From a virus, in the IMG/VR virus record IMGVR_UViG_3300025030_000054, positions 32,001-96,000 of that record: a DNA stretch of 64,000 nucleotides, one strand, 5' to 3'. A program made the position numbers and the translations under genes. The notes beneath the pieces were generated by a model. That model ran no database searches and was not told where the DNA came from. It was given only the letters and a program-made list of their open reading frames with translations. Of this stretch, positions 1,647 through 47,120 are shown piece after piece; within the stretch, counting starts at the first letter, position 1, and each line of letters starts with the position of its first letter.

Positions 1647-1666
1647 AAATTGGTAATTACCTATTT
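1647..1666. promoter_or_regulatory. Palindromic operator-like site (variant)
   Basis: AAATTGGTAATTACCTATTT, immediately before the RBS of paralogue 3. Confidence 0.7.
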
Positions 1667-1677
1667 AGGAGGAACTG

Positions 1678-2016
1678 ATGCCAGATAGTAAAGAAAGGAG
1701 GTGGGAAGGTGAAAAGAAATGGATCAAGTATCGTGCTAAATTAACCACAGATAAGAAATCAGTAGCTGTTACTATTTTAGAGCAGAGTCATAGGAGCTAT
1801 AACTTTGGAGTGGGAGGTGAGGATGAGTTTAGGTATCTCGGCTACGGCATAGGCAGTATCGCTTATCCAGATACGACTTCTGTGTTCACGTACCTACGAG
1901 GCAGCGAAACCAGCCGAGACGACACAACCATATACATGCCACTAGAAATGTACCAGAAGTTCAAAGCTACAGTTCTAGCTTATAACAAGTATTTTAAAGG
2001 CGACTCAGAAGACTAA
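1678..2016 (+). CDS. Paralogue-family member 3
   Basis: KWIKYRAKL..VTILEQSH..NFG ... KFKATVLAYNKYFK; AGGAGG RBS. Confidence 0.9.
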   Translation: MPDSKERRWEGEKKWIKYRAKLTTDKKSVAVTILEQSHRSYNFGVGGEDEFRYLGYGIGSIAYPDTTSVFTYLRGSETSRDDTTIYMPLEMYQKFKATVLAYNKYFKGDSED

Positions 2017-2090
2017 CCAATTAATTTATCTGAGTCTAACTTCCACCCCCAGCCTAACTACAGGCTGTACAAGACTAAGGAGAATACAAA

Positions 2091-2483
2091 ATGAAACACA
2101 TTAAACTCGAAGTAGCAGCTAACCCGGAATTCAGCCAGACACTTATCCGCGTAGTTAGCCAGACCAACGTAGGCAAAAAGTTCGGCAACATGAAAGGCGA
2201 CCTGCGTAAATTCAAAGCGGCCAACGGTCTTACAATCGCTAGCAACCTGTTCCCCGCTAAAGATGAGGACTTCAGGAACACTCAGACGATTTGGCTTCAG
2301 GGTCTTGGCTCTGCATCTCAAAATGCTACTTGCCTTGCCCTCCCCAATGACGTGGCAGTTAAACTTTGCGAGGCTGTTGAGGAGTATAATGAGTACTATA
2401 CCCAAGCTAACGTTAACCGCCGCGTGCAAGCCAAGCGTGAAGCTGCGGCACTTCGTAGTGGCCGTGTCGAGTACGTTGGGTAA
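2091..2483 (+). CDS. Paralogue-family member 4 (C-terminally extended)
   Basis: MKHIKL..VVSQTN..KFGN..IWLQG..AVEEYNEYY; TAAGGAG RBS. Confidence 0.9.
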   Translation: MKHIKLEVAANPEFSQTLIRVVSQTNVGKKFGNMKGDLRKFKAANGLTIASNLFPAKDEDFRNTQTIWLQGLGSASQNATCLALPNDVAVKLCEAVEEYNEYYTQANVNRRVQAKREAAALRSGRVEYVG

Positions 2484-2602
2484 GTAATTTTAGGAGCTGC
2501 ATGTTCAAGTAATGTGCAGCTTCATTTTCACAGTCACTATTTACGGTAACCCGCTCAACTTCTAAAAGAGGTTGATACAAACATCCATAAGGAGAATACA
2601 AA

Positions 2603-3064
2603 ATGAAACACATCAACGCTAAAGTAATGATTCTTCCGAGCTTTTCCAAGGGACTCATCAAGATCACCGGCCAGACCCACATCAACACTGCTTTCGGTAA
2701 CTCTGATGACGGCAAAACCTTCACAGCTACTAACGGTATTACTCTCGGAAGTAACCGCCGAGTCGCTAGGGATGCTGACGAGGTAAACACCATCTGGCTT
2801 CGTGGCACGGATACTTCTAAAAATTACACTTCGCTTGCTATTCCGGTGAAACGTCTTGGTAAAGTTGTCGATGCTATTAAGGAGTATAACGAGTACTACT
2901 CCGTAGCTAGCATTAACCAGCGAGTCAGGACTAAACGCGCAGCAGAAGCCGAAGCAGCTCGTCAGGCACTTATCGAAGCAGCTCGTCAGGCAGAACTCGC
3001 AAGGCAGGCTGAACTTGCTCGCCGTGCTGTTACTTTCTCTTCCTGCACGTTCATCGTAGGTTAA
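2603..3064 (+). CDS. Paralogue-family member 5 (coiled-coil C-terminal extension)
   Basis: MKHINAK..GQTH..AFGN..IWLRG..AIKEYNEYY; ARQAELARQAELAR tail. Confidence 0.9.
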   Translation: MKHINAKVMILPSFSKGLIKITGQTHINTAFGNSDDGKTFTATNGITLGSNRRVARDADEVNTIWLRGTDTSKNYTSLAIPVKRLGKVVDAIKEYNEYYSVASINQRVRTKRAAEAEAARQALIEAARQAELARQAELARRAVTFSSCTFIVG

Positions 3065-3071
3065 TCAAAAA

Positions 3072-4454: not shown

Positions 4455-4474
4455 AAATAGGTAATTACCTAAAT
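4455..4474. promoter_or_regulatory. Palindromic operator-like site
   Basis: AAATAGGTAATTACCTAAAT (14-bp perfect palindrome core), just before the RBS of 4491. Confidence 0.8.
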
Positions 4475-4490: not shown

Positions 4491-6074
4491 ATGAAAGATT
4501 TGTTGAAAACTACTGGCACGGTTTTGAGAAAACATGGTCTTCCTGATACAATGCTTGAGAAACTGCACGATCAGATGCGTGATGCAAAGAGCAGCCTTGA
4601 CTCCACTCTCGGTCTTACAGAATCCACTCTTTTCCGTAAGTCTATCCCGCTTGCTAGGAAAGAGGCAGATGTGCGTAAAGATTATCCGCAGACCTATTCG
4701 GTAATTGCTCATGTTCTTCATCAGGCAATTCAGGCAGGTTCTCCGATTGACTTGGGTTCTGTTTCTCTGATTGAAAATACCGTGAAAGTCAAGAATCAGG
4801 AAAGTAAACTGTCTAGGGTACTGGCCAAGCAACTTAAAGGACAAGAGGAAGTGCTCAAGTATTGTATGCCTGAACTCGGTATCAGCAAACCTGAGCAGTT
4901 TCTTCCTAAACTTGGCGATATAGTAAAGTCTGGAAGGCAACTTTGGGTTTCGACCAACATACTTGATTTCATTTATGCGTCGGAACATGCCTCCTTTACT
5001 TCTTGCCATTCCCTCAGCGGGTGCCACTTCAACGGTAACTTGGCATACGCTAGGGATGGTCTGACCTTGATAACCTTCGTTTCTGACGAAAAGGCAACCG
5101 CAGCGCAGCATGAAATTTATAAGCTGGGAAGGAGCTGGATGTTTGTCGTGGATAATACAATCATACAGCCCAAGTCTTATGGCGCTTACTACGATTTTGA
5201 AAGGGACACTGCGAGGCTGTTTGTAGAAGAGAAGATCGCGGAGTCTCTAGGGGTAGAAAACAAGTGGAAGATCAAACGCGGCGGTAGCATTGGCGAGGTA
5301 TATTTTGAGGAGCCTAAAGATAAGTATGCCAGCTCTGGTAGTGGTGCGCTCTACCTTGACAACTATGATCTGGATATCTCCTACATGGGTTCGTATAATT
5401 CTCCTAGCGTAGAGTTTTCTGCAGCAATGTGCTTGGAGTGTGGCCAGACCACTGATTATACTCAGAAGGGAGTTTGCACAGAACATGACGGCAAAGTTAA
5501 AGCAACCTGCCCGATCTGCGGAGAAAGGCACATCACTCACAATATGTACAACGTTGGTGGGGAAGAAGGTACTGTCTGTTCAACGTGCTTTACCCTAGAG
5601 TTTGGTCAGTGCAATCAGTGTGGAAACTATCATCGTAAGGGTGCTTTGGAAACTATCGACGGTAGGTTTGTTTGTGCTCCCTGCAAACAAAACCACTACA
5701 CAACCTGCGATTGCTGCGGAACTTTTAGCAAAAAAGACAAACTGGCTAATCTGAAAGGTGTTGGAAATGCTTGCCTTTCGTGCCAAGATAAGTACATGCT
5801 CTGCTCAATCTGTGGCGACTATCATCTTAAATCTGACGTTGAGTATTACAAGTATGTCGGTCGGGTGTGCAAAGTCTGCGTCGAATTTAGCACCTTCCCT
5901 TGCATTTCCTGCGGAGAAGTTCACCCTATGTCTGACAGAAAGGTAACTGGAAAGGAATCTCTCTGTACTGCTTGTGAGGCTCGTAGGGAAGGAAAAGAAG
6001 TTACACTTAAGTTTAAGCCTAAGTACGCTGATCTTCCTGAAGGTTGGGACGACTATGTAGAAGAAGTCGGCTAA
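4491..6074 (+). CDS. Large protein with tandem CxxC zinc-ribbon repeats
   Basis: About 11 CxxC motifs in ~32-aa repeats (CxxCGxxH...VCxxC) in the C-terminal 200 aa. Confidence 0.85.
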   Translation: MKDLLKTTGTVLRKHGLPDTMLEKLHDQMRDAKSSLDSTLGLTESTLFRKSIPLARKEADVRKDYPQTYSVIAHVLHQAIQAGSPIDLGSVSLIENTVKVKNQESKLSRVLAKQLKGQEEVLKYCMPELGISKPEQFLPKLGDIVKSGRQLWVSTNILDFIYASEHASFTSCHSLSGCHFNGNLAYARDGLTLITFVSDEKATAAQHEIYKLGRSWMFVVDNTIIQPKSYGAYYDFERDTARLFVEEKIAESLGVENKWKIKRGGSIGEVYFEEPKDKYASSGSGALYLDNYDLDISYMGSYNSPSVEFSAAMCLECGQTTDYTQKGVCTEHDGKVKATCPICGERHITHNMYNVGGEEGTVCSTCFTLEFGQCNQCGNYHRKGALETIDGRFVCAPCKQNHYTTCDCCGTFSKKDKLANLKGVGNACLSCQDKYMLCSICGDYHLKSDVEYYKYVGRVCKVCVEFSTFPCISCGEVHPMSDRKVTGKESLCTACEARREGKEVTLKFKPKYADLPEGWDDYVEEVG

Positions 6075-6164: not shown

Positions 6165-7463
6165 ATGGGTTATAAATTAAACACAATTCAAGAAGTGCTG
6201 GAAATGCCTACTGACGAAATGCTCCCAGCGTGTACAGATTACCTACTAGACTACTTTGAAGCTGACCCGAAGTCTGATCCGAAGGTTTACGTTTTGGAGG
6301 ATGATTTTGTATATGCCATCGGAGAAAGTCCTATCACTATCGTAGCGCACGTTGATACGGTTCGTGATAGATACATGCAAAAAGTGCCTACAAAAAATAC
6401 AGCCAACATAGTTCTAGCGAGTAGCAAGAAAGATGATTCGATGGTTCTTTGTCAAGACAGAAATGTTATCACAAACCTCAACGGAGTTCTGGGGGCCGAT
6501 GACAGAGCGGGAGTCTTCGGGTGCCTTGAGATAGTCAGACGTTGTAGTGAAGCTGGCTTACCTTTGCCAAGTGTCATTCTTACTAACGGGGAAGAGAGCG
6601 GGGGAATTGGTGTTGGGGCTTTTTGCAGATCTAAAATCTTTGAAGAACATGACAAAGGAAGGACCAAACTCTTTGTAGAAATGGACCGCTGCAACGCTAC
6701 AGAATGGGTTACTTACGGTGCTAAACTGCCTTCGGAAGTAGTTTCGTATGTTGAGTCGTTCGGATTCCATAAAGGTCATGGGTCATATTCTGATATAGCA
6801 GACTTGCAGGAGGAATATTTAATTCCTGCTGTAAACGTAAGTATCGGATATTACTCACAGCATTCGGCTTGTGAAAAACTTCATGTGGATGAGATGTACT
6901 TAACCATTGAGAGAGTTTTTCAAATGGTTAAAGATCCTATTGACAAACTCTATAAAGTAGATGCTGATGTTAAGGGCTATGGGTGGGATGAAGATTGGTA
7001 CAACCATTATAACCACAAAAACTATGTCAGTACTAACCACAACAAACCAAAAACAGAAACTCCTAAAACAACTACTAACAAGACTACCAAAGGAGTTACT
7101 TCATTTCCACAAGGCAAGCCTGGAAAAACTTCTGTTGATAATGCTCTGGATGCTATTACGAGGGGTGGATTTTGTATCAGTTGTGGGCATATCTGGAGTG
7201 ATTGCGAATGCGGCGAAATGCTTAAGGACATTGCAGCATACATGTACAAGGAAGAGATAGAGTTCCTCTTAGAGAACTACCTGTTTCCGGAAGATTCTAT
7301 GCATATTCTTCTCACTGCGTTTTTGGAAATGGAAAATGACCAGATTGCTGCAATAGACGTTGCTGTTGTGGCTGACGAAGGGACCAAGCTGCTAATTCAA
7401 AATAATGCTGTTGAGCAGTTTGCTAAAGAATCTGAGAATAACGAGGGGGTAGGAAATGCCTAA
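6165..7463 (+). CDS. M20/M28-family zinc peptidase-like protein
   Basis: AHVDTV, LGADDRAG, GEESGG, EMD, SDI, YYSQH metal-ligand pattern. Confidence 0.85.
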   Translation: MGYKLNTIQEVLEMPTDEMLPACTDYLLDYFEADPKSDPKVYVLEDDFVYAIGESPITIVAHVDTVRDRYMQKVPTKNTANIVLASSKKDDSMVLCQDRNVITNLNGVLGADDRAGVFGCLEIVRRCSEAGLPLPSVILTNGEESGGIGVGAFCRSKIFEEHDKGRTKLFVEMDRCNATEWVTYGAKLPSEVVSYVESFGFHKGHGSYSDIADLQEEYLIPAVNVSIGYYSQHSACEKLHVDEMYLTIERVFQMVKDPIDKLYKVDADVKGYGWDEDWYNHYNHKNYVSTNHNKPKTETPKTTTNKTTKGVTSFPQGKPGKTSVDNALDAITRGGFCISCGHIWSDCECGEMLKDIAAYMYKEEIEFLLENYLFPEDSMHILLTAFLEMENDQIAAIDVAVVADEGTKLLIQNNAVEQFAKESENNEGVGNA

Positions 7464-7879: not shown

Positions 7880-8434
7880 ATGGGGCATCATAAAGAGCTA
7901 CCTGAATCTGTGAAACAACATGCAGATAGGGTAGGTAGATTGGCCAGACTATCTGCAAGAGCTACTGGCAAAGACGAGAGAGCAGCTTATCTTGCGGGTA
8001 TTTTTCACGATGACGGGAAAGCTACCTTGCCTCCTGAACTGTTTGACGGCAGGGAGATAACCTTAGAAGAGTACTTGCTAATCAAAGAACACGCTATAAG
8101 AGGCTACCTTGATCTAAAAGAGAGGATGCCCTTCACCGGACTATGCTCTGGTTTACACCATGAAATGTCTGTGGTGGACGGCTATGGAATTACTTTGGAG
8201 GATATCCCTAAAGAATTATCTTTCGCAGACCTTAAAAAGATTTTAGACATTGCCACCATAGTTTCCATCGCAGACTTCATAGATGCTTATAATACTAGGA
8301 AGACTTCAATAGGACTTGGTGGTGCTAAAAAATTGGGGCTGAAAGAACTTCTCTGTAATAGGTACCCCTCAGAAATCCCTTTAGTGACTGTGATGTTGGA
8401 ATTGAGCGAAGAATTGTACAAACAAACCACCTGA
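7880..8434 (+). CDS. Stand-alone HD-GYP-like phosphohydrolase
   Basis: H..RV..LA, AGIFHDDGK, IKEH..GY, HHE...DGYG, IVSIADFIDA. Confidence 0.8.
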   Translation: MGHHKELPESVKQHADRVGRLARLSARATGKDERAAYLAGIFHDDGKATLPPELFDGREITLEEYLLIKEHAIRGYLDLKERMPFTGLCSGLHHEMSVVDGYGITLEDIPKELSFADLKKILDIATIVSIADFIDAYNTRKTSIGLGGAKKLGLKELLCNRYPSEIPLVTVMLELSEELYKQTT

Positions 8435-8455
8435 GAAACCAAAAGGAGAAATAAT

Positions 8456-9274
8456 ATGGATGAGAATAGCAAGCAGGGAGGTGAGGTGATTGAGAGTGTG
8501 GATTTAGGTAATACCAATTTAGAGCCTAAGCACAGGGAAAATTCATCTAAAGAATTATTTCAAAAAGATCCGGCAAGGTATTGGTACATTGAAGGAATGA
8601 GAGACGAAATAGAGTTACTGTACGAAGAGGCGGCTACTAAATACACCGCTGCGTACACTCAGGCAATTAGGGAAGGTAGATCTTCCGCGTTGCCTTACAA
8701 GTGGGAAGCCATGCGGTGTATTGAATTTGCAGCGATTTATAAAGGTTTAATGGATGAATGGGCAGCTACTAAAAATACTGGCCGAATGATTGACGAGCAT
8801 CAGCACATGGTTCACTGGTATGATGAGAAATCAGTGGTACCAAAAGAATTACTCGACGTGTACAAGAAAAAGGTTCCTGCGGGATTTCTATATAACGTAG
8901 TAATATATAACAGAGAAAATAAACAATGCCGGTTTGTCCACTCACTAGATTATCATAAGGACTCTGACCCTCTTATGGATAGAGAGTATGTTGCATATCC
9001 TGGAGGGTTTGTTCAGGCAAATGTGTATATCAAAGACCCTGAAGTTATCTTTCACAAGTGGATGTTAACCTCTAATAAACTTAATGACACACACGATTTC
9101 AGGAATGCGGTTAAGAGAAGCATCAGACTGAGGTACTTGCAAATGCCTGATTCGCTTAGACAAGAAATGCACAAGAGTAGTGTGTACAAAAAGTATGTGG
9201 CTCCCGCTATTGGAAATCGTAGTGTGGGTAGTTTGTTCGATGACTTTGTTGCCTACAAGGCTGGGTTAGTATGA
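8456..9274 (+). CDS. Hypothetical protein
   Basis: 272-aa ORF with AGGAG RBS; no recognisable motif. Confidence 0.75.
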   Translation: MDENSKQGGEVIESVDLGNTNLEPKHRENSSKELFQKDPARYWYIEGMRDEIELLYEEAATKYTAAYTQAIREGRSSALPYKWEAMRCIEFAAIYKGLMDEWAATKNTGRMIDEHQHMVHWYDEKSVVPKELLDVYKKKVPAGFLYNVVIYNRENKQCRFVHSLDYHKDSDPLMDREYVAYPGGFVQANVYIKDPEVIFHKWMLTSNKLNDTHDFRNAVKRSIRLRYLQMPDSLRQEMHKSSVYKKYVAPAIGNRSVGSLFDDFVAYKAGLV

Positions 9275-9600: not shown

Positions 9601-10211
9601 AACATTTAAAACTACGTGCTGAATTGGATAAGATAGATAAAAATTTCTGTTTTGTGGAGGTAGTTGAGCAGACACATAGGAGGTTAGATTTTGGGGTTAC
9701 TTTTAGTGGAGCCGGTTCTTTTGCTCATGGAGAGATTATGCTAGTGTCTTATGGAGAACCTCAGTGGGTTAACCACGGATTTGGCCGGGGTGGACATTCA
9801 GGGGTAGCCTTCCGGTTGTATGTACGGGGTCATCAAGAACAAAGAGATAAAGATAAAGTGAGAGTACCTACAAACATGTGGCCTAAAATAAAAGCTGCTG
9901 TTTTGGCTTATAATGAATTTTATTCTGGTAATAAAGAGGTGAAGAAAGAGAGTAAGGTAGAACCAGTAGTTAAAGCGACTGTTAAAAGTAAGGCTGATAA
10001 AGAATCTGACTGGGGCAGAATAACCAAAGAGTCTTTTGAGAAGTGCCTTGCTCAATATACTTCCACACTGGACACTGAATTTATTTATAGTGACTCAGTA
10101 GTAGAAGCGCCGCCAAGTCCACGGTGGCAAGCTACAAGGCGTACCTTTAACACTGATTTAAGGGGCTACATTACTTCTGCCTATTTTTTGGATGACCTTA
10201 ATGGCGACTAA
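9597..10211 (+). CDS. Paralogue-family member 8 (C-terminally extended)
   Basis: ATGA overlap at 9597; MKHLKLRAEL..VVEQTH..DFG ... WPKIKAAVLAYNEFY plus ~95-aa tail. Confidence 0.9.
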   Translation: MKHLKLRAELDKIDKNFCFVEVVEQTHRRLDFGVTFSGAGSFAHGEIMLVSYGEPQWVNHGFGRGGHSGVAFRLYVRGHQEQRDKDKVRVPTNMWPKIKAAVLAYNEFYSGNKEVKKESKVEPVVKATVKSKADKESDWGRITKESFEKCLAQYTSTLDTEFIYSDSVVEAPPSPRWQATRRTFNTDLRGYITSAYFLDDLNGD

Positions 10212-10398
10212 AAAACTTATCAGCCTGAGTCTAACAAAAGATGAAATAGCTCTGCTAGACACTCTTGTAATTATTGCAGAAAATAGAGCTATAAACCCCA
10301 AGCAAGTGAACAGAAGTACAGTTATCCGCGACCTTATGGTAAACTCCATGAGAGAGATACAGAGTACTAAAACTTCTCAAGGAGGTAACAATGAGTAA
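10201..10398 (+). CDS. Ribbon-helix-helix (CopG/Arc-like) DNA-binding protein
   Basis: KLISLSLTKDEIALLD ... NRSTVIRDLM: beta-strand/helix/helix pattern. Confidence 0.7.
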   Translation: MATKKLISLSLTKDEIALLDTLVIIAENRAINPKQVNRSTVIRDLMVNSMREIQSTKTSQGGNNE

Positions 10399-10723
10399 AG
10401 AAAATGGGGCAGAAAGGGTGACTGTAACTATTGAAGCACCGCCTAGCTTTTCTGTTGTTGAATACATTGAGTTGGTAAAGCAGGAAGGCTACAAAAATGA
10501 TTACATGAATTTCAACTTCGACCAACTTCTTGAAGATCTTCCTAAAGCCATGAAATCGTTTACAAATGACATAGTAGCCAAAGCAATACTTTCGCATAGT
10601 TATGGAGAGATGCTGGCAAAACATTTTAGAAATTGGGTCAGGGGAAACATGGACGAGACCTTAGAGTACGCTTGTGGTGGGGCTAGCATCGGAGAAGACG
10701 AGGAGGGACTTGCTGAATGTTAA
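10391..10723 (+). CDS. Hypothetical protein
   Basis: AGGAGG RBS; overlapping neighbours. Confidence 0.7.
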   Translation: MSKENGAERVTVTIEAPPSFSVVEYIELVKQEGYKNDYMNFNFDQLLEDLPKAMKSFTNDIVAKAILSHSYGEMLAKHFRNWVRGNMDETLEYACGGASIGEDEEGLAEC

Positions 10724-13128: not shown

Positions 13129-13148
13129 AAATAGGTAATTACCTAAAT
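13129..13148. promoter_or_regulatory. Palindromic operator-like site
   Basis: AAATAGGTAATTACCTAAAT, before the RBS of paralogue 9. Confidence 0.8.
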
Positions 13149-13165: not shown

Positions 13166-13540
13166 ATGAAGCACCTTAAAATACGGGCAGAGTACAGACC
13201 TGCCACAAAAGACGTAGAAGTAACTTTATTAGAGCAGTCGCATTTTGGTACTGATTTCGGTAGGATAGAAGATGCTTTTAAGATTGATCCAAAAAATAAT
13301 TGTGTGTTTAAACATAATGGTGTGGCGATTTATAGCCATATCACTTACAATAGAACCCCAATCTATTTTCACAAAAACAAGTACTCAAACGAAGTAAACA
13401 AAATTACCACTTGGATTTGCTTAGGAGATAGTTCCTCAATATTCAAACAAACTAAAGTAGAAAACACAGTGCCGATTGCTGAATGGCCAGCCTTGAAAGC
13501 AGCTATTGAAGCCTACAACGAATGGGGAGTTATCCAATGA
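13166..13540 (+). CDS. Paralogue-family member 9
   Basis: MKHLKIRAEY..VTLLEQSH..DFG ... WPALKAAIEAYNEWG. Confidence 0.9.
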   Translation: MKHLKIRAEYRPATKDVEVTLLEQSHFGTDFGRIEDAFKIDPKNNCVFKHNGVAIYSHITYNRTPIYFHKNKYSNEVNKITTWICLGDSSSIFKQTKVENTVPIAEWPALKAAIEAYNEWGVIQ

Positions 13541-13900: not shown

Positions 13901-15004
13901 ATGTCGATTTTAGATAAATTTGCCTCACTTATTCCACTTGAAGATTTAGAAGAAGGAGCTAAACAACAAATTTACAACATCCTGAAACTTGACTGTTTAA
14001 AGAAACTTGCATTGATGCCAGATGCCCACCAAGGCTATGATATGCCTATTGGTGGAGTGGCTTTGCTAGACGGATTTATCTCAGCTAGCTTCGTGGGCTA
14101 TGATTTGGGATGCGGCGTATGCCATATAGCTACTGAAGAAAACGCAGAAGACTACTCAAAAGATGATTTACAACACATTTATAAGACTATCCACAAGACT
14201 ATTCCGACAGGGTTTTCTTCACATTATCATTCTAAAGACTATCTTCCTAAGTTTAAGTCTGCGATTCTTGATAAACAGACCACTGACAGAATAGCAGAGA
14301 AGGTTGACTTTCAGCTTGGTACACTAGGCGGTGGAAACCACTTCATAGAAATTGGAAGCAATAGGAAAGGTAAACTGGCGGTAACTATCCATTCTGGCTC
14401 TAGGAATGTGGGACATACTATCGGCGGGGCTTATATGAAGATGGGTCGTATGTTTGAACTTTCTTCGGAACTAGGTCAGTCTTACCTGAGAGACATGAAC
14501 TACGCACTTGACTGGGCTTTGGAAAACAGAATGCAAATGATGCGGAAGGTTTTAGAAGCAATTGGGATTAATAATAAAAATATAACGGTAGTCTTGAAGG
14601 ACGTTATAAACGAGAACCATAATCATGCTGTAGTTACTTCTGAAGGTGTTTTGCACCGTAAGGGAGCTACTCCTGCTGATTTAGATCAACTTGGTATTAT
14701 TCCGGCTAACATGCGAGACGGAGTTTATATTACTAGGGGTTTAGGTAATACCGAATTTTTGTCATCAGCTAGTCACGGTTGCGGTAGGCTTATGGGAAGG
14801 AACGTAGCTAAGAAATCTCTAGACTACGATGAATTCGTAACTCAGATGGAAGGTATTGTATGCTCCACCGACAGAAGCATTTTAGATGAGGCTCCAAATG
14901 CCTATAAAGATGTTAACTATGTGCTTGATGCTCAAGTTGGTAGGACTGTGGAAGTTGTTGATTTTATTAAGCCTTTGCTAAATATTAAAGCAGGAGGAGA
15001 CTAA
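13901..15004 (+). CDS. rtcB: RtcB-family RNA ligase
   Basis: MPDAHQG..PIGG, VGYDLGCG, QLGTLGGGNHFIE, HSGSR, HRKGAT, SASHGCGR, DEAPNAYK. Confidence 0.95.
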   Translation: MSILDKFASLIPLEDLEEGAKQQIYNILKLDCLKKLALMPDAHQGYDMPIGGVALLDGFISASFVGYDLGCGVCHIATEENAEDYSKDDLQHIYKTIHKTIPTGFSSHYHSKDYLPKFKSAILDKQTTDRIAEKVDFQLGTLGGGNHFIEIGSNRKGKLAVTIHSGSRNVGHTIGGAYMKMGRMFELSSELGQSYLRDMNYALDWALENRMQMMRKVLEAIGINNKNITVVLKDVINENHNHAVVTSEGVLHRKGATPADLDQLGIIPANMRDGVYITRGLGNTEFLSSASHGCGRLMGRNVAKKSLDYDEFVTQMEGIVCSTDRSILDEAPNAYKDVNYVLDAQVGRTVEVVDFIKPLLNIKAGGD

Positions 15005-17394: not shown

Positions 17395-17598
17395 ATGAGA
17401 AATATTGTGACTGAAGAAGAGGCAGCTACGAAACGGTGCCCTCAACTCATGGGTAGGTCTGATCTTGTAAATCGGTATTGCAAAGGATCTGACTGCATGG
17501 CTTGGCGGTGGCATTCTGAGGAGACACTAGAGAAGGGCTATGGAGAGAAAACTGTGGTACTAAAATATGGGTACTGTGGTAAGGTGCCTTTAACATGA
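17395..17598 (+). CDS. Small Cys-rich hypothetical protein
   Basis: GGAGGAG RBS; CP..C..SDCMAWRW..GYCG. Confidence 0.7.
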   Translation: MRNIVTEEEAATKRCPQLMGRSDLVNRYCKGSDCMAWRWHSEETLEKGYGEKTVVLKYGYCGKVPLT

Positions 17599-17630: not shown

Positions 17631-18380
17631 ATGGCATTAGTTTCGGGCGACAGCCATGGTAACCTCAACCGCTTAAAAGCATTCCTGAGATACAAACCTG
17701 AAGAGGAACACATTCTAACAGGAGACCTAATGGACTCCTACATAGCGTCCGACACAGGTATTATAGAGACCTTTCAGTTGTTTCAAAAATCAGATGCATT
17801 AGCAACATGGTCGAACCATGATACGGTTTACCTAAAAAACTGTCCTGGACAACTGATGTGCTCAGGTCATCGTACTAACCCAATTTTCGGTCATCTGATA
17901 AACGGCAGCAAGGATAAATACAGAGGGTCGTTTGTAAGAGATGGCTACCTGATAACACATGCAGGAGTTGTGGAAGAGATTGGTAGTAGGTTCTCTGACC
18001 TAGAATCTTTAAGCGAGTATATAAACACTGAGATAGATAAGATTGTCTATAACGAGGAAATTTGGGTAGATAGTCCTTTGTCGGATGTGTTTAATATCTC
18101 TGTTGTGAGAGGAGGTTACCATAAGTACGGCGGACCTCTATGGGCTGATTACAGAAGAGAAAAATATGATTGCACCAAGAATCAAATCTTTGGACACTCT
18201 CATTCGGAAACTTTGAAAATCTTTAACTACGGAGATGATGAAAACGAGAGGAAGCATGTCGCTGTAGATTGTAGTGAGTTTAGCTGTTTTAACACCAAGA
18301 CTGGCGCAGCAGAGGATTTCATGTTTCCTGCTTTTAAAGATGGTCCTGCGGTAAGAAAACTGTTGGAGGTCGGGTACTAA
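17631..18380 (+). CDS. Calcineurin-like metallophosphoesterase
   Basis: GDSHG, GDLMD, SNHD, THAG, GGPLW, FGHSH. Confidence 0.9.
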   Translation: MALVSGDSHGNLNRLKAFLRYKPEEEHILTGDLMDSYIASDTGIIETFQLFQKSDALATWSNHDTVYLKNCPGQLMCSGHRTNPIFGHLINGSKDKYRGSFVRDGYLITHAGVVEEIGSRFSDLESLSEYINTEIDKIVYNEEIWVDSPLSDVFNISVVRGGYHKYGGPLWADYRREKYDCTKNQIFGHSHSETLKIFNYGDDENERKHVAVDCSEFSCFNTKTGAAEDFMFPAFKDGPAVRKLLEVGY

Positions 18381-19350: not shown

Positions 19351-19379
19351 ATTATACCACAGAAATGGCTTTTTGTCAA
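19351..19379 (-). promoter_or_regulatory. Consensus sigma70 promoter, leftward
   Basis: TTGACA-17-TATAAT with extended -10 TG on the minus strand. Confidence 0.8.
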
Positions 19380-19421: not shown

Positions 19422-19441
19422 ATTTTGGTAACTACCTAAAA
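19422..19441. promoter_or_regulatory. Palindromic operator-like site (degenerate)
   Basis: ATTTTGGTAACTACCTAAAA. Confidence 0.55.
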
Positions 19442-19456: not shown

Positions 19457-19502
19457 CTGTCAAGAGAATTATATTTAGTGATTTGTATAATTCTCTTGAC
19501 AG
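19457..19502. repeat. Perfect 17-bp inverted repeat, 12-nt loop
   Basis: CTGTCAAGAGAATTATA / TATAATTCTCTTGACAG; each arm carries an outward-facing TTGACA. Confidence 0.85.
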
Positions 19503-19525
19503 AATTGGGTTTGGTGTGCTATAGT
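19496..19525 (+). promoter_or_regulatory. Probable sigma70 promoter, rightward
   Basis: TTGACA-18-TATAGT with TG extended -10. Confidence 0.55.
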
Positions 19526-20841
19526 GGATTATTGGTTGTGTTGTTTTGTCGGTTTCTTACTACATGCCCATTACGTCTGACTGCATCTACGACAACACCC
19601 CCTCCGACATTGAAATCCTTGGAGATAGATAAAGCCGATTCTCCTGCCAAGTACCTCGTCACAGCAACGGCTTCTTGTTCCTTAGTTAGTGCAAATTTAC
19701 ACATAAGCGGGCGCATAGGTGTGTTCTTTTTGGCTAAAATTACATGCACAGAGGAGGATGATATACCAAACTTAGCAGCTATGCTCTCTGCATTGGCCCC
19801 TTCTAGGTATAATTTAACAATTTCATCGCCGTATAAGTCTATTAATTTTGGCTTAGGTTCTTTCTTGGGTTTTGGTGTGCACTCAGGTCTGCCATATACG
19901 TCATATAGGTAGTTACGAACCCTTTTAGCATTTAGTCGCAATAAGTCGCCAATAGCTCCTGCGGTAAGTCCTTCGGTATATTTTGTTCGAATTTGACTTA
20001 GTAACTGCTCGTCCCAATTGTGATCGCGAATAATTCCACGTGACCTTAGAAGTTTTGCTGTAGCTGCTTTAGGCACTTTGTACTTTCGTACGATAGCTTC
20101 AACTGACATACGATTTTCGTAATCTTTTATGATATTTTCTTTATTGTGCTCAAGGCGTTTATCACAAGCTCTAAGTCTTTTAGCTCCTTTCAGAATACTG
20201 CTGACTCTGGATTGGTTTACTTTAGTATGGGTTGATATTTCTTTTCTAGACATACCGCCATCGTGTAAAGTTTTAATGTAATTTATTGTTTCGTCTGGTA
20301 TAGCACTATAAAATGAGTTTGATCGAGGCTGAATTCCCTCACGGTCTAAAATGTTTCGCACAGTTTTGTGAGACACTTTATATTTTTTACCTAGAGTAAC
20401 CGTAGAGGCTCCATTTAGATATTCTTTAACTATTTCAAGTTCGTCTTCAGGAGAGTATTTGTGAGGCTTCAGCTTCCCTCCAGCGCCTCCATGGTGTACA
20501 TTTAGAAGTGGGTTACTTTTGTCTATTATCTTCCTTCCGATACTCTTTATTGCCTTAGTCTCTAATAGGTAAGCTTCATCTTCGGGCATATTGTCTTTCA
20601 ATTTAATTATATAATCTCTTAGATCGAAGCCACTATCAATGATTTTCAGTATTAGCTTGTGCTTGGCTGTCTTATTTTTATTCTTAGCCTCAGAAATATG
20701 ATTGTACATTCTGATCTTACTGCCCTTTCCGACATAAAATGGTTCATACTCTGTAACTAGACCTATATCTGGATACACAAAATTTCCTTCCACCAGCGGA
20801 TTGAGGTACACATAAATATAGAAATTACGTTTTTGTTTCAT
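19519..20841 (-). CDS. GIY-YIG (LEM-3-like) homing-type endonuclease with tandem HTH repeats
   Basis: YIYVYLNP...FYVGKG..RM..H...E..AI..N; about 6 repeats of I...Y..G.S...I...F.V. Confidence 0.8.
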   Translation of the reverse strand: MKQKRNFYIYVYLNPLVEGNFVYPDIGLVTEYEPFYVGKGSKIRMYNHISEAKNKNKTAKHKLILKIIDSGFDLRDYIIKLKDNMPEDEAYLLETKAIKSIGRKIIDKSNPLLNVHHGGAGGKLKPHKYSPEDELEIVKEYLNGASTVTLGKKYKVSHKTVRNILDREGIQPRSNSFYSAIPDETINYIKTLHDGGMSRKEISTHTKVNQSRVSSILKGAKRLRACDKRLEHNKENIIKDYENRMSVEAIVRKYKVPKAATAKLLRSRGIIRDHNWDEQLLSQIRTKYTEGLTAGAIGDLLRLNAKRVRNYLYDVYGRPECTPKPKKEPKPKLIDLYGDEIVKLYLEGANAESIAAKFGISSSSVHVILAKKNTPMRPLMCKFALTKEQEAVAVTRYLAGESALSISKDFNVGGGVVVDAVRRNGHVVRNRQNNTTNNPL

Positions 20842-22727: not shown

Positions 22728-22910
22728 ATGATCTATGAAAATTCCCAAGAAGGCAAATGTCCAAAATGTTCTAACCCACATCTAGATTCATCAGACGTAG
22801 AATTTGGTTCAGATTGGGTATCTCACTCAGTATTCTGTGACATTTGCCATTGGTATGGTTCTGAGGTTTATTCTACAAAATTTCTAAGAATGGAGGATGG
22901 AGAGAAATGA
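22728..22910 (+). CDS. Small zinc-ribbon protein
   Basis: CPKC...CDIC; AGGAG RBS. Confidence 0.65.
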   Translation: MIYENSQEGKCPKCSNPHLDSSDVEFGSDWVSHSVFCDICHWYGSEVYSTKFLRMEDGEK

Positions 22911-26866: not shown

Positions 26867-27043
26867 ATGTTAATTTCGTCAGGCACCGTATGGAAAAAAT
26901 TTGAAATTTCGAGAGTAAGTTTAGAAGACTGGTTTAATAAAGGACTCATAAGACGCTTCCCGACTCCGGGGGGACATTATAGGTACCTTGAAAAAGAAAT
27001 AATGGCTGTCCTCAATGTTACCGCTGAGGACTTACAGAAGTGA
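26867..27043 (+). CDS. MerR/Xis-type HTH protein (58 aa; not in ORF track)
   Basis: AGGAG RBS; MLISSGTVWKKFEISRVSLEDWFNKGLIRRFPTPGGHYRYLEKEI, with the TPGGHxRY wing motif. Confidence 0.75.
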   Translation: MLISSGTVWKKFEISRVSLEDWFNKGLIRRFPTPGGHYRYLEKEIMAVLNVTAEDLQK

Positions 27044-33642: not shown

Positions 33643-34515
33643 ATGGCTAAAACTACTAATGACAAAATTACCGCTGCATACGAAGAAATGATGAACCTGC
33701 TTTCCCCCGAAGAACGTGCTGCGCTTAAGCAGATGACTGGTCAGGATCAGGGAGGCGGTGGTAGCAAAACTCCTATCGTCAAAATCAACTATAGGGAGAA
33801 GACTGCACAGGACGGCACCAAGATCGCTAAAGGCAACTTCTGTGTTGGTCAGAAAAATGCTACGGTAGACGGTAAGACTGTCATGCTTACAGCTGGTACT
33901 GACTTGGGTTCTGAACTCACAGCCGTAATTCTTAAGAAAGGGCAACAGTTCAGTTTCTGGGATAATGATGCCAAGAAGCGTTGCAGCTCGCAGGTTATTT
34001 GTGAGCGTGGTGAGGTGCCTACCGGATATAATCTTAAAAATGTCTGCAACGATAAAAGCTGTCCTCGTCGTAAAGATGGAATTGACAAAGGTGATAAATG
34101 CACCTGTCAGTACGTGGTTTATCTTCGTCTCCCTGCTGGTACTAAACTGCCTGACGGGACACCTTGCGAAGTTGCTATGATGTACATCAAGGGTAACTCT
34201 TACATGCCTTTCCAGACTTACATGGAAACTGAACTGAAGAGTATCCCGTCCATCGCTGTCAACACTATTCTGTCTACCGAAGAGTGCGAGCAGGGAGCCA
34301 CTCTGTTTTACGAACTGAAATTTGCTAAAGGCGCTCCGGTTACTAAGGAAGTGTTCACTGAGAATTTTCAGATGGTAAGTGGCATTAACAAGCAGCTCGT
34401 CGAATACAAAGAAGAGCAGGCTAAAAAGATGCTGGAAGGTCCGAAAGATTCTTCTGGCGGTAATTCTTACGGCAATGCTACTGTTGTTAATGACGAGGAT
34501 AACATTGTCTGGTAG
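33643..34515 (+). CDS. Probable ssDNA-binding/annealing protein (T5 D11-like position)
   Basis: Own promoter and terminator, strongly biased codons, acidic/aromatic C-terminus (NDEDNIVW), upstream of SbcCD. Confidence 0.6.
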   Translation: MAKTTNDKITAAYEEMMNLLSPEERAALKQMTGQDQGGGGSKTPIVKINYREKTAQDGTKIAKGNFCVGQKNATVDGKTVMLTAGTDLGSELTAVILKKGQQFSFWDNDAKKRCSSQVICERGEVPTGYNLKNVCNDKSCPRRKDGIDKGDKCTCQYVVYLRLPAGTKLPDGTPCEVAMMYIKGNSYMPFQTYMETELKSIPSIAVNTILSTEECEQGATLFYELKFAKGAPVTKEVFTENFQMVSGINKQLVEYKEEQAKKMLEGPKDSSGGNSYGNATVVNDEDNIVW

Positions 34516-34522: not shown

Positions 34523-34542
34523 ATTTAGGTAATTACCTATTT
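34523..34542. promoter_or_regulatory. Palindromic operator-like site (reverse orientation)
   Basis: ATTTAGGTAATTACCTATTT, exact reverse complement of the 20-mer. Confidence 0.8.
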
Positions 34543-34570
34543 AGGAGGGTTTCGGCCCTCCTTACTTTTT
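34543..34570 (+). terminator. Rho-independent terminator
   Basis: AGGAGGGT-TTCG-GCCCTCCT followed by TACTTTTT. Confidence 0.8.
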
Positions 34571-43569: not shown

Positions 43570-43638
43570 TAAGTGTCACTAAAAGGGGTGGGTCAAACCG
43601 CCCCTTTAATTTTAACTTTAGCAAGAGGAGTTTTAAAA

Positions 43639-46572
43639 ATGTACTATGTCCCGATAAGTTACACAAGAGAATTTGTAGACCTGATGATGTACCTAAAAAC
43701 AAAGTATGGCCAGAAGTTGTTTGATCTGGAAGGTATAGGCAAGCAACTTGATATGTGCAAATTCTCTAAGGATTTTTTCTCAGCTACTACTACGGCAGAT
43801 GCCAGTGTAGACGCAAATGCCAACGTCACAGACACTTCCAATATTGCTTACGGTATTGAACTACCTAAACCTTATTTCAAACTCAATAGCTATTTCATGT
43901 TGTGGAAGCATATGAGAAAACTATATGGCATGGAGGTTGCCAACTCTACTATAGAGCAGCAGCTTACAGGGTCGGTATACGTAAATGATTTTCTTGGAAT
44001 CGCTGCTGGAAGTCCGTACTGCTTTAATTACAGTACCTACGATATCATGCTTCTGGGCCTACCTATGGTGGATAAAATTAAGTCGGTAGCCCCCAAATAC
44101 CTGTATAGTTTCAAAAGCCAACTTGAGCAGTTTGTTGTAATTGCTTCTAACTCTACCCTCGGTGCTGCTGGGCTGGCTGATCTTCTGATTGTAATGAGCT
44201 ACTATGTCAAAAATATTCTAAGTACTAAATCAGATGCTGGATTTTCTTTCAAGGATGAGGCGGCTTGCTGGAACTACGTTAAAGAAACTTTGGTGAGTTT
44301 TATCTACACTATTAACCAGCCAATGCGAGGCAATCAGTCACCGTTTACTAATGTATCTATTTATGACTCAGAGTTTTTGAATTCTCTTTGCCCCCAATAC
44401 GTGTTTCCTGACGGCAGCACTCCAGATATATACTTAGTTCAGCGGATTCAGGAACTCTTCTTGGATGTTATGAACTCAGAAATGAAACGCACTCCTGTGA
44501 CTTTCCCAATTACCACAGCTTGCTTCTCTGTAAATGACGATAAGAAAATTACGGACGAAGCATTCATTGAGTTCATCGCTGAAAAGAACACAGAGTTTGG
44601 CTTTATCAATATGTACATAGGTAAGAGTTCAACGCTCTCAAGTTGCTGTTTCACTGGCGATCAAAAAGTTCTCGTGAGGGATAGCTATGCGGGTGTGAGG
44701 TTAATGCCTATTGAGAAATACGCCACCACCCCCTTTGAAGAAAAACCTAACGCAACCGTATACCATGATGGGTCTTGGGTTAAAGGCAAAACGGTAAAAA
44801 CTAAATACACCGGCAAACTGTACACTATCAAAACTGCTAATAAAAAAGAAGTCACTGTGACTGCCGACCATATTTTTCCCACACAGAATGGGGATAAGAA
44901 TGCTGCGGATATCACTTTAGATGAAATGTTACTTTTTAATAGTTCTCCACTCACACCAGCTATGAGGGGAACCCAAGAGTTAACCTACGAAGACGGTCTG
45001 TTGATAGGTGCTTACTTAGGAGATGGAAGTATTTATTACAGAAACAATGGGGCATCTGTTGAAGTTACTATGTCGGTAACTGAGGTGAAACTTGAAAGAC
45101 TGCCCTTCTTGAAGTCTTGGAATATTTACCCTAGCAAAAATAATGTGGTATTTGCTAAGAGCTATTCTTTAGAAACAGCAGCTAAGATTGAAGAGTGGGT
45201 TACTGTGGGTAGAGCGCCAGATAAGCGTTTGTCTATGCAGGTACTAGACCAACCTTACGAGTTTAGAGAAGGAATTTTAGACGGACTTTACGCCACTGAC
45301 GGAGGCAATAGCAACCGAATTTATACCACATCAGAAGGTCTGGCAGAGGACTTGGAAGTCCTTCTTACCAGCCTCGGAAGACAGAGTATAATGGACGTGT
45401 CTGACAGGACTGACGAGCCTGTAGTGATTAGGGGAGAAGAGTTCAACAGAAACTACCCGCTACATTGTGTGAGATGGTACGCCCCTAAAAATTCAAGAAA
45501 ACAGGAAGGTATATATCTTAAGAGAAATGGTAATACCTATTTCAAGGCAACTGAGATAGCCGTGAGGGAGGTTGTTGAAGAAGAAGTTTACTGCTTTGAG
45601 GTTCTAAATACAGATGAGCCGTATTTCACGCTACCTAATGGAATTATAACCCACAATTGTCGCCTCAGAAGTGATACAGATAACGAGTACTTCAATAGTT
45701 TTGGTTCTGGTAGCTCTAAGATTGGCTCATTGGGTGTTACTACAATTAATCTTCCGAGGCTTGCTTTTAAAACAGCAGGGCTATCAAAAGATACTGCCGA
45801 ACGAGAAGCCTATTTCTGGAGTGAGCTTAAAGAGTTGGTAGGCATTGCCGCTAGAGTCAACCACACTAAGCGAGATATCGTAAAGAGCAGAATTGACAGT
45901 AATAATCTGCCGCTGTACTCTTTAGGTTTTATGGACCTATCTAAACAATACTCAACGCTAGGGGTAAACGGTCTTAATGAGTGCCTAGAAATTTTAGGGC
46001 TTAACATTTTGGCGAGTGATGGGCAAGAATTTGTTGTTCGAATACTCGAAACCATAAACTCTGAAAATGATAAATTCCAAAAGGCTTACAAAACTCCCCA
46101 TAACTGCGAGCAAATTCCAGGAGAAAATGTCTCTATTAAACTTGCAGATAAAGATAGGTTTATGGGGTATAACGATAGGTACGAACTTTATAGCAATCAG
46201 TTTATACCCCTCACAACTAAAGCTGACCTGCTAGACCGTATTCATCTTCAAGGTTTGTTTGACAGTCATTTTTCGGGTGGCGCTATTTGTCACTTGAATA
46301 TTGAAGAGAAGGTAGAAGATACTAAGAAAGTAGTAGAACTTATCAAGATGTGTGCAGAGAAGGGTGTAATTTATTTTGCCTTAAACTACAATCTGCAACG
46401 TTGTTCTGAAGGCCACATGTCTGTAGGTAAGAAGGAAACTTGTGGGGTATGTGGCGGGGAAGTGATAGATAACTATACAAGGGTTGTTGGGTTCCTGACC
46501 AATGTAAAGAACTGGCATAAGGTAAGACGCGAGCAAGATTATCCTGAAAGACAGTTTTATAAAGAGGCTTAG
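43639..46572 (+). CDS. nrdD: Anaerobic (class III) ribonucleotide reductase large subunit, intein-containing
   Basis: PYC, QSPFTN, SSC|CRL, TINLPR, EQIPGE, glycyl loop TRVVGFL, Zn site C..H..CGVCG. Confidence 0.95.
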   Translation: MYYVPISYTREFVDLMMYLKTKYGQKLFDLEGIGKQLDMCKFSKDFFSATTTADASVDANANVTDTSNIAYGIELPKPYFKLNSYFMLWKHMRKLYGMEVANSTIEQQLTGSVYVNDFLGIAAGSPYCFNYSTYDIMLLGLPMVDKIKSVAPKYLYSFKSQLEQFVVIASNSTLGAAGLADLLIVMSYYVKNILSTKSDAGFSFKDEAACWNYVKETLVSFIYTINQPMRGNQSPFTNVSIYDSEFLNSLCPQYVFPDGSTPDIYLVQRIQELFLDVMNSEMKRTPVTFPITTACFSVNDDKKITDEAFIEFIAEKNTEFGFINMYIGKSSTLSSCCFTGDQKVLVRDSYAGVRLMPIEKYATTPFEEKPNATVYHDGSWVKGKTVKTKYTGKLYTIKTANKKEVTVTADHIFPTQNGDKNAADITLDEMLLFNSSPLTPAMRGTQELTYEDGLLIGAYLGDGSIYYRNNGASVEVTMSVTEVKLERLPFLKSWNIYPSKNNVVFAKSYSLETAAKIEEWVTVGRAPDKRLSMQVLDQPYEFREGILDGLYATDGGNSNRIYTTSEGLAEDLEVLLTSLGRQSIMDVSDRTDEPVVIRGEEFNRNYPLHCVRWYAPKNSRKQEGIYLKRNGNTYFKATEIAVREVVEEEVYCFEVLNTDEPYFTLPNGIITHNCRLRSDTDNEYFNSFGSGSSKIGSLGVTTINLPRLAFKTAGLSKDTAEREAYFWSELKELVGIAARVNHTKRDIVKSRIDSNNLPLYSLGFMDLSKQYSTLGVNGLNECLEILGLNILASDGQEFVVRILETINSENDKFQKAYKTPHNCEQIPGENVSIKLADKDRFMGYNDRYELYSNQFIPLTTKADLLDRIHLQGLFDSHFSGGAICHLNIEEKVEDTKKVVELIKMCAEKGVIYFALNYNLQRCSEGHMSVGKKETCGVCGGEVIDNYTRVVGFLTNVKNWHKVRREQDYPERQFYKEA
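44647..45657 (+). mobile_element. Intein (337 aa) with LAGLIDADG homing endonuclease
   Basis: Starts CFTGDQKV, block B TADH, LIGAYLGDG and LDGLYATDG, ends ITHN followed by Cys. Confidence 0.93.
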
Positions 46573-46579
46573 AGTATAA

Positions 46580-47038
46580 GTGAGATTCTTAACTACACAG
46601 TATACTCTTTCTAAAGGTGCATTAGAAATTTACTTTTCAGGTTGTAAAGGACCGCATTGTAGGGGTTGCCATAACCCCGAAACTCAGTCTTTTAGTTTAG
46701 GTACAGAAGTAGGTGCTAAAGAACTATCTAGCATTATTAAGGCTAAGGTGCAGTCTTTTGGTACGCTTATAGAAAGTATAATGATCTTAGGGGGCGAGCC
46801 TCTAGACCAACCACAGAAAGAACTAGAAGAGTTTATTCAAGCACTGTCAGATCTTAACCTACCTATCTGGCTGTTTACTAGGTATGAACTTTCACAAGTA
46901 CCTTTTAGTTTGCGTATAAAGTTCAGTTATATTAAGACTGGAAGGTACCTCGAAGAGTTCAAGGGCGAAAAGACTCAGTACGGCATTACGTTAGCAACTA
47001 GCAATCAAAAAATTCATAAAAGAGGTTTAGACTACTAA
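46580..47038 (+). CDS. nrdG: Class III RNR activase (radical SAM)
   Basis: FSGCKGPHCRGCHN, LGGEPL, KTGRY, SNQ. Confidence 0.93.
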   Translation: MRFLTTQYTLSKGALEIYFSGCKGPHCRGCHNPETQSFSLGTEVGAKELSSIIKAKVQSFGTLIESIMILGGEPLDQPQKELEEFIQALSDLNLPIWLFTRYELSQVPFSLRIKFSYIKTGRYLEEFKGEKTQYGITLATSNQKIHKRGLDY

Positions 47039-47043
47039 CAAAC

Positions 47044-47077
47044 AAAAGCCCCTACAAACTATCTTGTAGGGGCTTTT
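47044..47077. terminator. Bidirectional Rho-independent terminator at arm convergence
   Basis: AAAAGCCCCTACAA-actatc-TTGTAGGGGCTTTT. Confidence 0.9.
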
Positions 47078-47100
47078 CTCATTCATCCGAAAAATCATCT

Positions 47101-47120
47101 AAATAGGTAATTACCTAAAT
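47101..47120. promoter_or_regulatory. Palindromic operator-like site
   Basis: AAATAGGTAATTACCTAAAT between convergent genes. Confidence 0.8.

Follow-up and report, generated by a model that had tools for sequence, protein, structure and literature searches.

The DNA analyzed here, a window of 64,000 nucleotides, comprises bases 32001–96000 of a 105,687-bp IMG/VR phage record (IMGVR_UViG_3300025030_000054), such that a genome coordinate equals the window coordinate plus 32000; positions refer to the window unless marked as genome. The uncultivated phage of approximately 106 kb, denoted G0 in the following, has a G+C content of about 41%, a strong Shine–Dalgarno sequence (SD; AGGAGG), and early promoters of the host type (sigma-A) that match TTGACA-17-TGnTATAAT perfectly. 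Its intergenic gaps carry copies of a short palindrome with the core GGTAATTACC, which is the subject of this study. A sequence-only reading of the window had listed seven such sites, and all of them proved to be real. Three sites (4455, 13129, and 47101) match the 20-mer AAATAGGTAATTACCTAAAT exactly, that at 34523 is its exact reverse complement, and those at 1647 and 17598 are variants (Table 1). A search with the 20-mer, allowing up to three mismatches, finds six sites, and a 14-mer core with up to two mismatches adds 19425. Shuffles give chance expectations of 0.05 and 0.5, respectively, and not a single shuffle gave seven.

The set extends beyond the window. The whole genome harbors 26 exact GGTAATTACC cores, of which approximately 0.1–0.2 are expected, and three intergenic variants with one mismatch (genome 17863, 51427, and 58011). 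By far, GGTAATTACC is the top over-represented k-mer family in G0. The consensus, (G)AAAWW-GGTAATTACC-WAWWW, has a length of 20–21 bp; information content is limited to positions −6 to +14 (about 21 bp), no −35-like or −10-like element accompanies it, and besides the SD no other conserved element lies within 45 nt of the sites. The core forms a perfect or near-perfect dyad and polarity is confined to the outer flanks, where the 5′ side is more conserved because the 3′ flank merges into the SD. The 29 sites are spread over 95 kb, most densely at genome 12.6–21.3 kb, i.e., upstream of the window among small ORFan genes, and only two are located in or beside the minus-strand structural block. The palindrome is a real and strongly non-random feature, and it is under selection.

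Twenty-five of the 29 sites lie outside open reading frames (ORFs) or at their very end, downstream of early promoters. The usual layout is composed of an upstream stop codon, 0–20 nt, the motif, 4–12 nt, the SD, and ATG, and the distance from the end of the motif to the SD is mostly 0–12 nt. Where gaps are long, the copies tend to lie next to one of the two flanking signals, the SD downstream or the stop codon upstream, a pattern which is inflated, since gene calls were crude and small ORFs were missed. In the window, four sites abut the ribosome-binding sites of ORFs 1678–2016, 4491–6074, 13166–13540, and 17631–18380, two lie near terminators (34523 and 47101), and one (19422) is located in a promoter hub between strong sigma-A-type promoters at 19351–19379 (−) and 19496–19525 (+), all in agreement with the sequence-only reading. 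Its label of a phosphoesterase for 17631–18380 found no such match in Pfam, and a degenerate copy at 26006 is an addition to its list. Two non-coding hubs with tandem iteron families (12-mer in eight, 13-mer in three to four, and 26-mer in three copies) are located upstream of the window at genome 9600–10200 and 13000–14200. These hubs may represent a replication origin; they also hold four to five palindrome copies, with a common AGAGGCYGGCAAGAGRGG-like box downstream of three of them, and a conserved 326-aa gene adjoins the iteron hub in G0 as well as in the lineages G3 and G4 introduced below.

Four close relatives served to follow the sites on a short evolutionary scale: G1 (59 kb) and G2 (18 kb), both IMG/VR contigs of metagenome 3300025030, and L290 and L291, contigs of Ga0209518. 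Shared genes reveal protein identities to G0 of mostly 56–100% in G1 and G2, with a few much lower, and of 94–96% in L290 and L291 (one protein). All exact-core sites of G0 within the regions covered by these four are present in them, e.g., those at 13129, 17598, 34523, and 47101 in G1; conservation in related phages, on which the sequence-only reading had placed weight, is thus evident. At genome 5291, 45134, and 49603, homology ends at the motif and different genes lie beyond, with the motif itself kept in the relatives, while at genome 12604 and 16218 the copies of G0 and of the relative are both located in unaligned segments. In these comparisons, it is the site itself that is under purifying selection. 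In G1, site 13129 is followed by a 2.5-kb cassette encoding a PRPP-synthetase-like protein and NAMPT, and site 17598 by a cassette with an extra RNA ligase (L059:1641–4138 and 7971–8612, respectively). G0 has neither, and both insertions sit exactly between the palindrome and the SD of the next gene. NAMPT-type NAD salvage is a known type of counter-defence.

Moving to higher evolutionary distance, five further lineages, G3–G7, were found through a ligase profile, two of them represented by complete 113-kb genomes with direct terminal repeats. They share 30–70% protein identity with G0 and are largely syntenic with it; lineage G+C content ranges from 40% to 50%. GGTAATTACC is absent from all five. 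Each has a repeat of its own: AACTTCCGA-YRYR-TCGGAAGT in G3 (26 copies), GGTAGAA-CWWG-TTCTACC in G4 (22 copies), ATTCA-N4-TGAAT in G5 (32 copies), AGCTAA-N4-TTAGCT in G6 (approximately ten copies), and GGTGCGA-CATG-TCGCACC in G7 (28 copies). One architecture, a 4-nt center flanked by arms of 5–8 bp, fits every lineage. The motifs are common to the members within a lineage and mutually exclusive across lineages, and two lineages with differing palindromes originate from one metagenome, 3300025030. An SD, a start codon, and an ORF are found within 45 nt of 58–72% of the sites in G0, G3, G4, G5, and G7, compared with 14–23% of random positions, and in more than half of the gene-linked G5 sites the SD begins only 0–3 nt past the motif. 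Orthologues bearing the local palindrome comprise a 527-aa Zn-repeat protein (in G3 and G7 at the place equivalent to site 4455), a paralogue family, the tape measure protein, and proteins of 96 and 128 aa; likewise, the G3 palindrome precedes the G3 orthologue of ORF 26038–26424. This lineage-private, wholesale replacement implies that a sequence-specific trans-acting factor diversifies along with the sites.

Some G5 copies also occur within promoters. In three cases, the copy occupies the spacer of a sigma-A promoter, always as TTGACW-N3-motif-TAnnnT; a tyrosine integrase, a gene which was found in G5 only, is driven by one of the three. Four further sites are located 6–9 nt upstream of a −35 box. 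Site–promoter pairs number nine in this lineage versus 1.3 expected, which is direct evidence that the palindrome acts at the DNA level in G5.

The sequence-only reading had also offered a recombination site as an explanation and suggested that the sites might mark breakpoints of gene gain and loss. As a cassette-junction site, the palindrome would provide a portable short homology or a recombinase target through which single genes are gained, lost, or swapped among phages. A locus at genome 17863/18131 is known in three states, with one motif and no gene, with two motifs around a 78-aa gene (G0), and with a different, unrelated gene of about 600 nt between the two motifs, so that an indel among relatives is bounded by two motif copies. 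Furthermore, the NAMPT and RNA-ligase cassettes and one encoding a 77-aa protein are inserted directly 3′ of a motif, and like behavior has been reported for the Cluster O repeat of mycobacteriophages (PMC4351075). Breakpoints at motifs thus do occur, but not in excess: mosaic junctions make up 8 of the 19 gaps with a motif and 43 of the 108 without one (odds ratio 1.1, p = 1), and since motif-free gaps are junctions equally often, a dedicated recombination role is unsupported. Most insertions carry a motif on one side only, and the promoter-embedded copies of G5 would be left unexplained. No tyrosine or serine recombinase was found in G0, G3, and G4, whose genomes are complete or near-complete. 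Six-frame searches of G0 gave no match to an integrase, resolvase, or ParB (PF00589, PF00239, and PF02195), and none at E ≤ 0.1 to a RAYT (Y1, IS200-like transposase, PF01797), for which control genomes did match. The palindrome therefore differs from REP/RAYT elements by the missing transposase, and from integron-like arrays by the missing integrase and the single-sided cassettes. We regard a recombination site as quite unlikely; the motif persists where flanking genes are exchanged and crossovers can take place at it, yet it is not a preferred breakpoint.

Whether the palindrome is read as DNA or as RNA can be approached through the variation of its two halves. In G0, the half-sites vary independently (TT..TA 13, TA..TA 6, TA..AA 4, and TT..AA 0), and of 23 sites only 6 have a base pair between the core-flanking positions 5 and 16, the commonest class, TT..TA, being a mismatch. 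Arm variants in G3, G6, and G7 lead to mismatches that are neither Watson–Crick nor wobble pairs, and not a single compensatory or wobble-preserving change was found in any lineage examined. This bears on an RNA-level operator, in which a stem with a 4-nt loop in the polycistronic mRNA, 5′ of an SD or 3′ of a stop codon, would be recognized by a lineage-specific RNA-binding phage protein, which would either repress translation or cut the cistrons apart as a hairpin-specific endoribonuclease. A stem with a 4-nt loop does fit six out of six lineages, but predicted folding yields very weak stems in G0 (−1.4 to −3.9 kcal/mol, with −1.4 for the commonest form), G5 (−3.3 kcal/mol), and G6 (−5.0 kcal/mol). 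The loop sequence reveals a moderate bias of about 14:5 to one orientation relative to transcription in G3, while the non-palindromic centers of G4 and G5 are found either way round with respect to the gene. The short distance of most sites to the SD, the adjoining of SD or stop codon in long gaps, and an unusual set of RNA enzymes in the group (PIN-PhoH, RtcB, two kinds of RNA ligase, a CCA-adding enzyme, and GluRS) would suit such an operator; the copies in G5 promoter spacers and in iteron hubs would make no sense as mRNA elements, and Rfam contains no match for the palindrome. A weak stem and pairing that is not kept distinguish it from structured RNAs. Taken together, the results favor a double-stranded DNA site over an RNA structure, and we consider an RNA-level operator unlikely.

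In copy number, length, lineage specificity, and pre-gene position, the palindromes resemble the promoter sets of phage RNA polymerases (RNAPs). Along this line, the plus strand at genome 12.4–51.5 kb lacks a strong sigma-A promoter, except for a single match with a score of 11.5 inside an ORF at 36.5 kb. A compact phage-specific promoter of about 20 bp upstream of the SD, read by a phage RNAP or by a factor redirecting the host polymerase, would render each cassette a transcription unit of its own. Due to the symmetric core, however, such a promoter would fire both ways, and copies are located between convergent genes and immediately before a terminator. The SDs of more than half of the gene-linked G5 sites, which begin only 0–3 nt past the motif, argue in the same direction. 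All large proteins of G0 are assigned, those above 840 aa being only tail proteins, NrdD, and the DNA polymerase. Neither PF04542 (sigma-70 region 2) nor PF00940 (T7-type RNAP) gave a match in the six-frame searches of G0, the latter negative being weak because its control search detected nothing in any genome. A promoter function of this kind is highly improbable.

The best-supported reading of the sequence data is an operator with a roadblock function. It draws on the dyad symmetry, on palindromes that are exchanged lineage by lineage, on the copies that lie within promoters of a relative, and on half-sites that do not covary as they would in RNA. According to this reading, the palindrome would be the double-stranded DNA operator of a dimeric phage protein, mostly acting as a roadblock inside early operons; we infer that a protein binds, that it blocks elongation, and that the phage encodes it, and assign the reading about as much chance of being right as of being wrong. 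The dimeric, sequence-specific protein would be made from the host-type (sigma-A) early promoters and would occupy the approximately 29 sites at gene boundaries within the long plus-strand early/middle transcription units. Once bound, it would mainly serve as an elongation roadblock or insulator, shutting down or metering single early-gene cassettes, and at a minority of sites it would control a promoter in the classical operator manner. Site and protein would diversify jointly, which would be the reason why each lineage has a private palindrome of the same architecture. Of the two functions put forward by the sequence-only reading, the dimeric-protein operator with roadblock thus stands as the better supported and the recombination site does not.

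Several observations weigh against the roadblock operator. The G0 sites nearest to a transcription start site are 88–100 nt off, none was seen to overlap a convincing promoter, and the promoter-embedded copies occur in the distant relative G5, not in G0 itself. A placement adjoining SDs and stop codons is not readily explained by a roadblock acting on DNA alone and would suit an RNA-level or cassette-junction role. No fitting regulator, be it a dimeric helix-turn-helix (HTH), a ribbon-helix-helix (RHH), or another protein, was found among approximately 95 proteins scanned with Pfam or PHROGs. Finally, G0 contains no integrase, ParB, or sigma-70 region 2 and is hence not an example of Cluster A-type immunity (see below).

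Both regulators proposed by the sequence-only reading were rejected. The RHH protein (68 aa, 10192–10398) has a DNA-reading β-strand which is near-identical in lineages with unrelated palindromes (KKLISLSL, KKLISLNL, and HKLISLSL in G0, G3, and G4, respectively, with an identical helix B); the near-invariant strand implies that this protein presumably has a conserved operator of its own. The HTH_17 protein (58 aa, 26867–27043, a weak match), which is the only small HTH protein found in G0, has no counterpart in G1, where the motif is identical. A third candidate, the 213-aa multi-HTH product of the first early gene, has 38% identity in G2, is derived from the DNA-binding part of a GIY-YIG endonuclease, and was rejected as well. 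Among the shared small families, a 129-aa Cys4 protein with a Lys-rich tail (22907–23296), present in all lineages, is the most DNA-binding-like by composition. Its AlphaFold2 model reached a predicted local distance difference test score (pLDDT) of 67, and neither Foldseek nor VIA-align nor a PDB profile search gave a meaningful match, Atlas hits all being below 0.9 and at noise level; as binder it is a lead only. For the 527-aa Zn-repeat protein, no PDB homologue was found. Autoregulation gave no clue to the binder, since no gene family has the motif upstream in every lineage. The RHH gene forms a conserved gene pair with that of an acidic 110-aa protein (10391–10723); the RHH protein is present in G0, G3, and G4, the acidic protein in all lineages.

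That the protein scan yielded no phage-encoded binder would also be consistent with a host origin, in which a transcription factor or nucleoid protein of the host would bind the palindrome as its operator and the lineage sequences would mirror different hosts, with which the spread of lineage G+C content is compatible. A scan of 185,579 species genomes revealed, among the at least 120 matches listed, only scattered singletons and no regulon-like set. Two lineages with different dyads co-occur in one sample, and six unrelated host factors would have to use the same site architecture and placement. Thus, a host factor is improbable.

Among known systems, the palindrome of Cluster O mycobacteriophages is the closest phenomenon, in terms of functional class and not of homology. 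This 17-bp element, TGTTCGG-NNN-CCGAACA, is found in 34 copies in Corndog; its authors suspected a dimeric regulator and could not assign a function (PMC4351075). Both elements share invariant inverted arms with a short variable center lacking a clear orientation relative to transcription, approximately 30 copies per genome mainly in short intergenic gaps of one transcription block, positions conserved among relatives, and occasional indels bounded by two copies. They differ in that sequence, host phylum, and phage type are unrelated, and six lineages with six different palindromes have not been reported for Cluster O.

The sequence-only reading had pointed to mycobacteriophage stoperators and to Aca-type control. 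Stoperators of Cluster A phages are dispersed sites bound by the L5 gp71-type immunity repressor, for which an elongation block has been proposed (PMC6550527, PMC9283540). The likeness extends to 20–35 short sites dispersed through transcription units in short intergenic regions, to the co-diversification of motif and lineage, and to a proposed elongation block plus one or more promoter operators; dispersal in at least 20 copies applies to G0 as well. It ends with asymmetry, orientation, and temperate immunity context: stoperators are asymmetric, 13–17 bp in length, bound by monomers, and mostly in one orientation to transcription, whereas the palindrome is dyad-symmetric, and Cluster A phages are temperate with integrase or parABS, neither of which occurs in G0. 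A homologous stoperator repressor was not found in G0, and no repressor candidate survived. Aca-type control is at odds with the distribution, as one or two repeats in the promoter of a single operon would be expected instead of 29 sites over 95 kb. Such an operon would also include an HTH aca gene, and the only small HTH protein of G0, HTH_17, is absent from G1 despite the shared motif.

SPBRE of the Bacillus prophage SPbeta, an element of about 15 bp predicted in silico, was recognized decades later as the site of the master repressor MrpR (PMC10516654). Here too, a repeated element occupies many intergenic positions of a large Firmicute-type phage. SPBRE is located in the promoter regions of about ten genes and serves lysogeny, and MrpR is a recombinase-fold protein, to which nothing comparable was detected here except for the G5 integrase. 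Stoperators (PMC6550527, PMC9283540) and SPBRE/MrpR (PMC10516654) are precedents for genome-wide phage operators.

Elements of this kind are known and poorly understood; the palindrome adds a further form, which is more informative through its six lineage-private versions. One regulator acting on more than a dozen operators across the early region is known from the palindromic CIRs of the phiC31 repressor and from the C1 operators scattered over phage P1; each of these phages is temperate and has a known repressor, and their operators are not known to be positioned against ribosome-binding sites. Short regulatory sequences also border the single-gene cassettes that come and go in T4-type phages (PeSL cassettes) and as lambdoid morons. 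PeSLs consist of a sigma-70 early promoter and a stem-loop, whereas the palindrome lacks promoter hexamers and a stable stem.

Extended to the whole group of siphoviruses of about 100–113 kb, most of which are apparently virulent and two of which have direct terminal repeats, the roadblock operator suggests a tentative and rather doubtful generalization. One protein family, possibly with a new DNA-binding fold, might read dyads at the 5′ edge of approximately 10–30 cassettes as a private "address code" that is replaced wholesale in each lineage, such that co-infecting relatives could not cross-regulate and perhaps could not exchange cassettes. If a stoperator-like global roadblock does exist in phages mostly without integrases, it would explain the shut-off or insulation of early cassettes in large phages that lack lysogeny genes, and would offer a natural series of six orthogonal operator–regulator pairs. 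Genome-wide repeated operators are known from a few temperate phages, and the palindromic kind (Cluster O) has been without explanation for a decade. The six lineages are related, their palindromes are not, and some of the sites precede orthologous genes; this constitutes a natural experiment on the joint change of specificity in a regulator and dozens of its sites, and the lineage dyads provide a handle for finding the binder among small conserved proteins.

Table 1. Palindrome copies in the window and other loci referred to in the text (window coordinates unless prefixed by genome or contig).
Feature	Position	Strand	Context
Palindrome, variant AAATTGGTAATTACCTATTT	1647–1666		11 nt past the stop of ORF 1377–1640; 3′ flank merges into AGGAGG of ORF 1678–2016 (paralogue-family member)
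Palindrome, exact consensus	4455–4474		GGAGG of the 527-aa Zn-repeat protein (4491–6074) 4 nt downstream
Palindrome, exact consensus	13129–13148		between the DNA ligase stop (13119) and the ribosome-binding site of paralogue 13166–13540
Palindrome, variant AAATTGGTAATTACCTAAAA	17598–17617		shares its first base with the end of the upstream TGA stop (17596–17598); 3′ flank merges into GGAG of ORF 17631–18380
Palindrome, degenerate (core GGTAACTACC)	19422–19441		non-coding hub between divergent consensus sigma-A promoters
Palindrome, degenerate (core GGTATTTACC, 26011–26020)	26006–26025		7 nt upstream of AGGAG of ORF 26038–26424
Palindrome, exact, opposite flank orientation	34523–34542		7 nt past the stop of ORF 33643–34515; immediately adjoins terminator-like hairpin 34543–34562
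Palindrome, exact, between convergent genes	47101–47120		24 nt past bidirectional 15-bp hairpin 47044–47077; 22 nt beyond the stop of minus-strand lipase-like gene 47143–47721
GIY-YIG homing-endonuclease-like gene with array of HTH modules	19519–20841	−	in the promoter hub
Free-standing 213-aa gene, HTH array only	genome 4041–4682	+	first gene downstream of the strongest early promoter
Further paralogue-family members	genome 21291, 29711, 31981, 32341, 41271, 45537, 47008		
RNA repair/tRNA toolkit	13901–15004; genome 5372–6742, 22319–23683, 24291–24842, 28292–29665		
Integrase and resolvase loci, G5	L155:6928–8166; G005:93645–94049		
Resolvase locus, G7	G007:33869–34276		

Two groups of genes recur next to the palindromes. 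The 527-aa protein (4491–6074) combines an N-terminal domain, which is conserved, with approximately seven zinc-ribbon repeats (CxxC...CxxC), has no PDB or Pfam relative, and is adjacent to a 432-aa protein (6165–7463) with metallopeptidase-like motifs. This neighbor pair is conserved in G0, G3, G4, and G7; the lineage palindrome lies upstream of the 527-aa gene in G0, G3, and G7, and upstream of the 432-aa gene in G4 and G7. The multi-copy paralogue family encodes proteins of 96–124 aa (1678–2016, 13166–13540, and others; Table 1), and four of its members in G0 are preceded by the lineage palindrome, as are members in G3 and G4.

As to the phage itself, tape measure, tip fiber, and a GpJ-like protein are its largest proteins, which identifies G0 as a siphovirus. 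No close relative was found among 50,697 phage records by megablast of 12 kb or tblastn of a capsid-like protein, and the best DNA polymerase identity therein is at most 26%. Resolvases of about 230 aa are encoded in each of G5 and G7; the complete genomes G3 and G4, together with G0, have neither integrase nor resolvase, and thus lifestyle may differ within the group. Genes for replication comprise a family-A DNA polymerase, a DnaB-like helicase, a primase, an ATP-dependent ligase, SbcCD-like proteins, and FEN. Nucleotide metabolism is further represented by the anaerobic ribonucleotide reductase NrdD (43573–46572), which is split by an intein with a LAGLIDADG domain, directly followed by its radical-SAM activase (46580–47038). 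The RNA repair/tRNA toolkit is unusually complete, including RtcB, an Rnl-type RNA ligase, an HD-domain CCA-adding enzyme, a PIN-PhoH fusion, and a GluRS homologue, and no tRNA genes or Rfam families were found in G0. Such a toolkit without tRNA genes suggests counter-measures against host anticodon nucleases.

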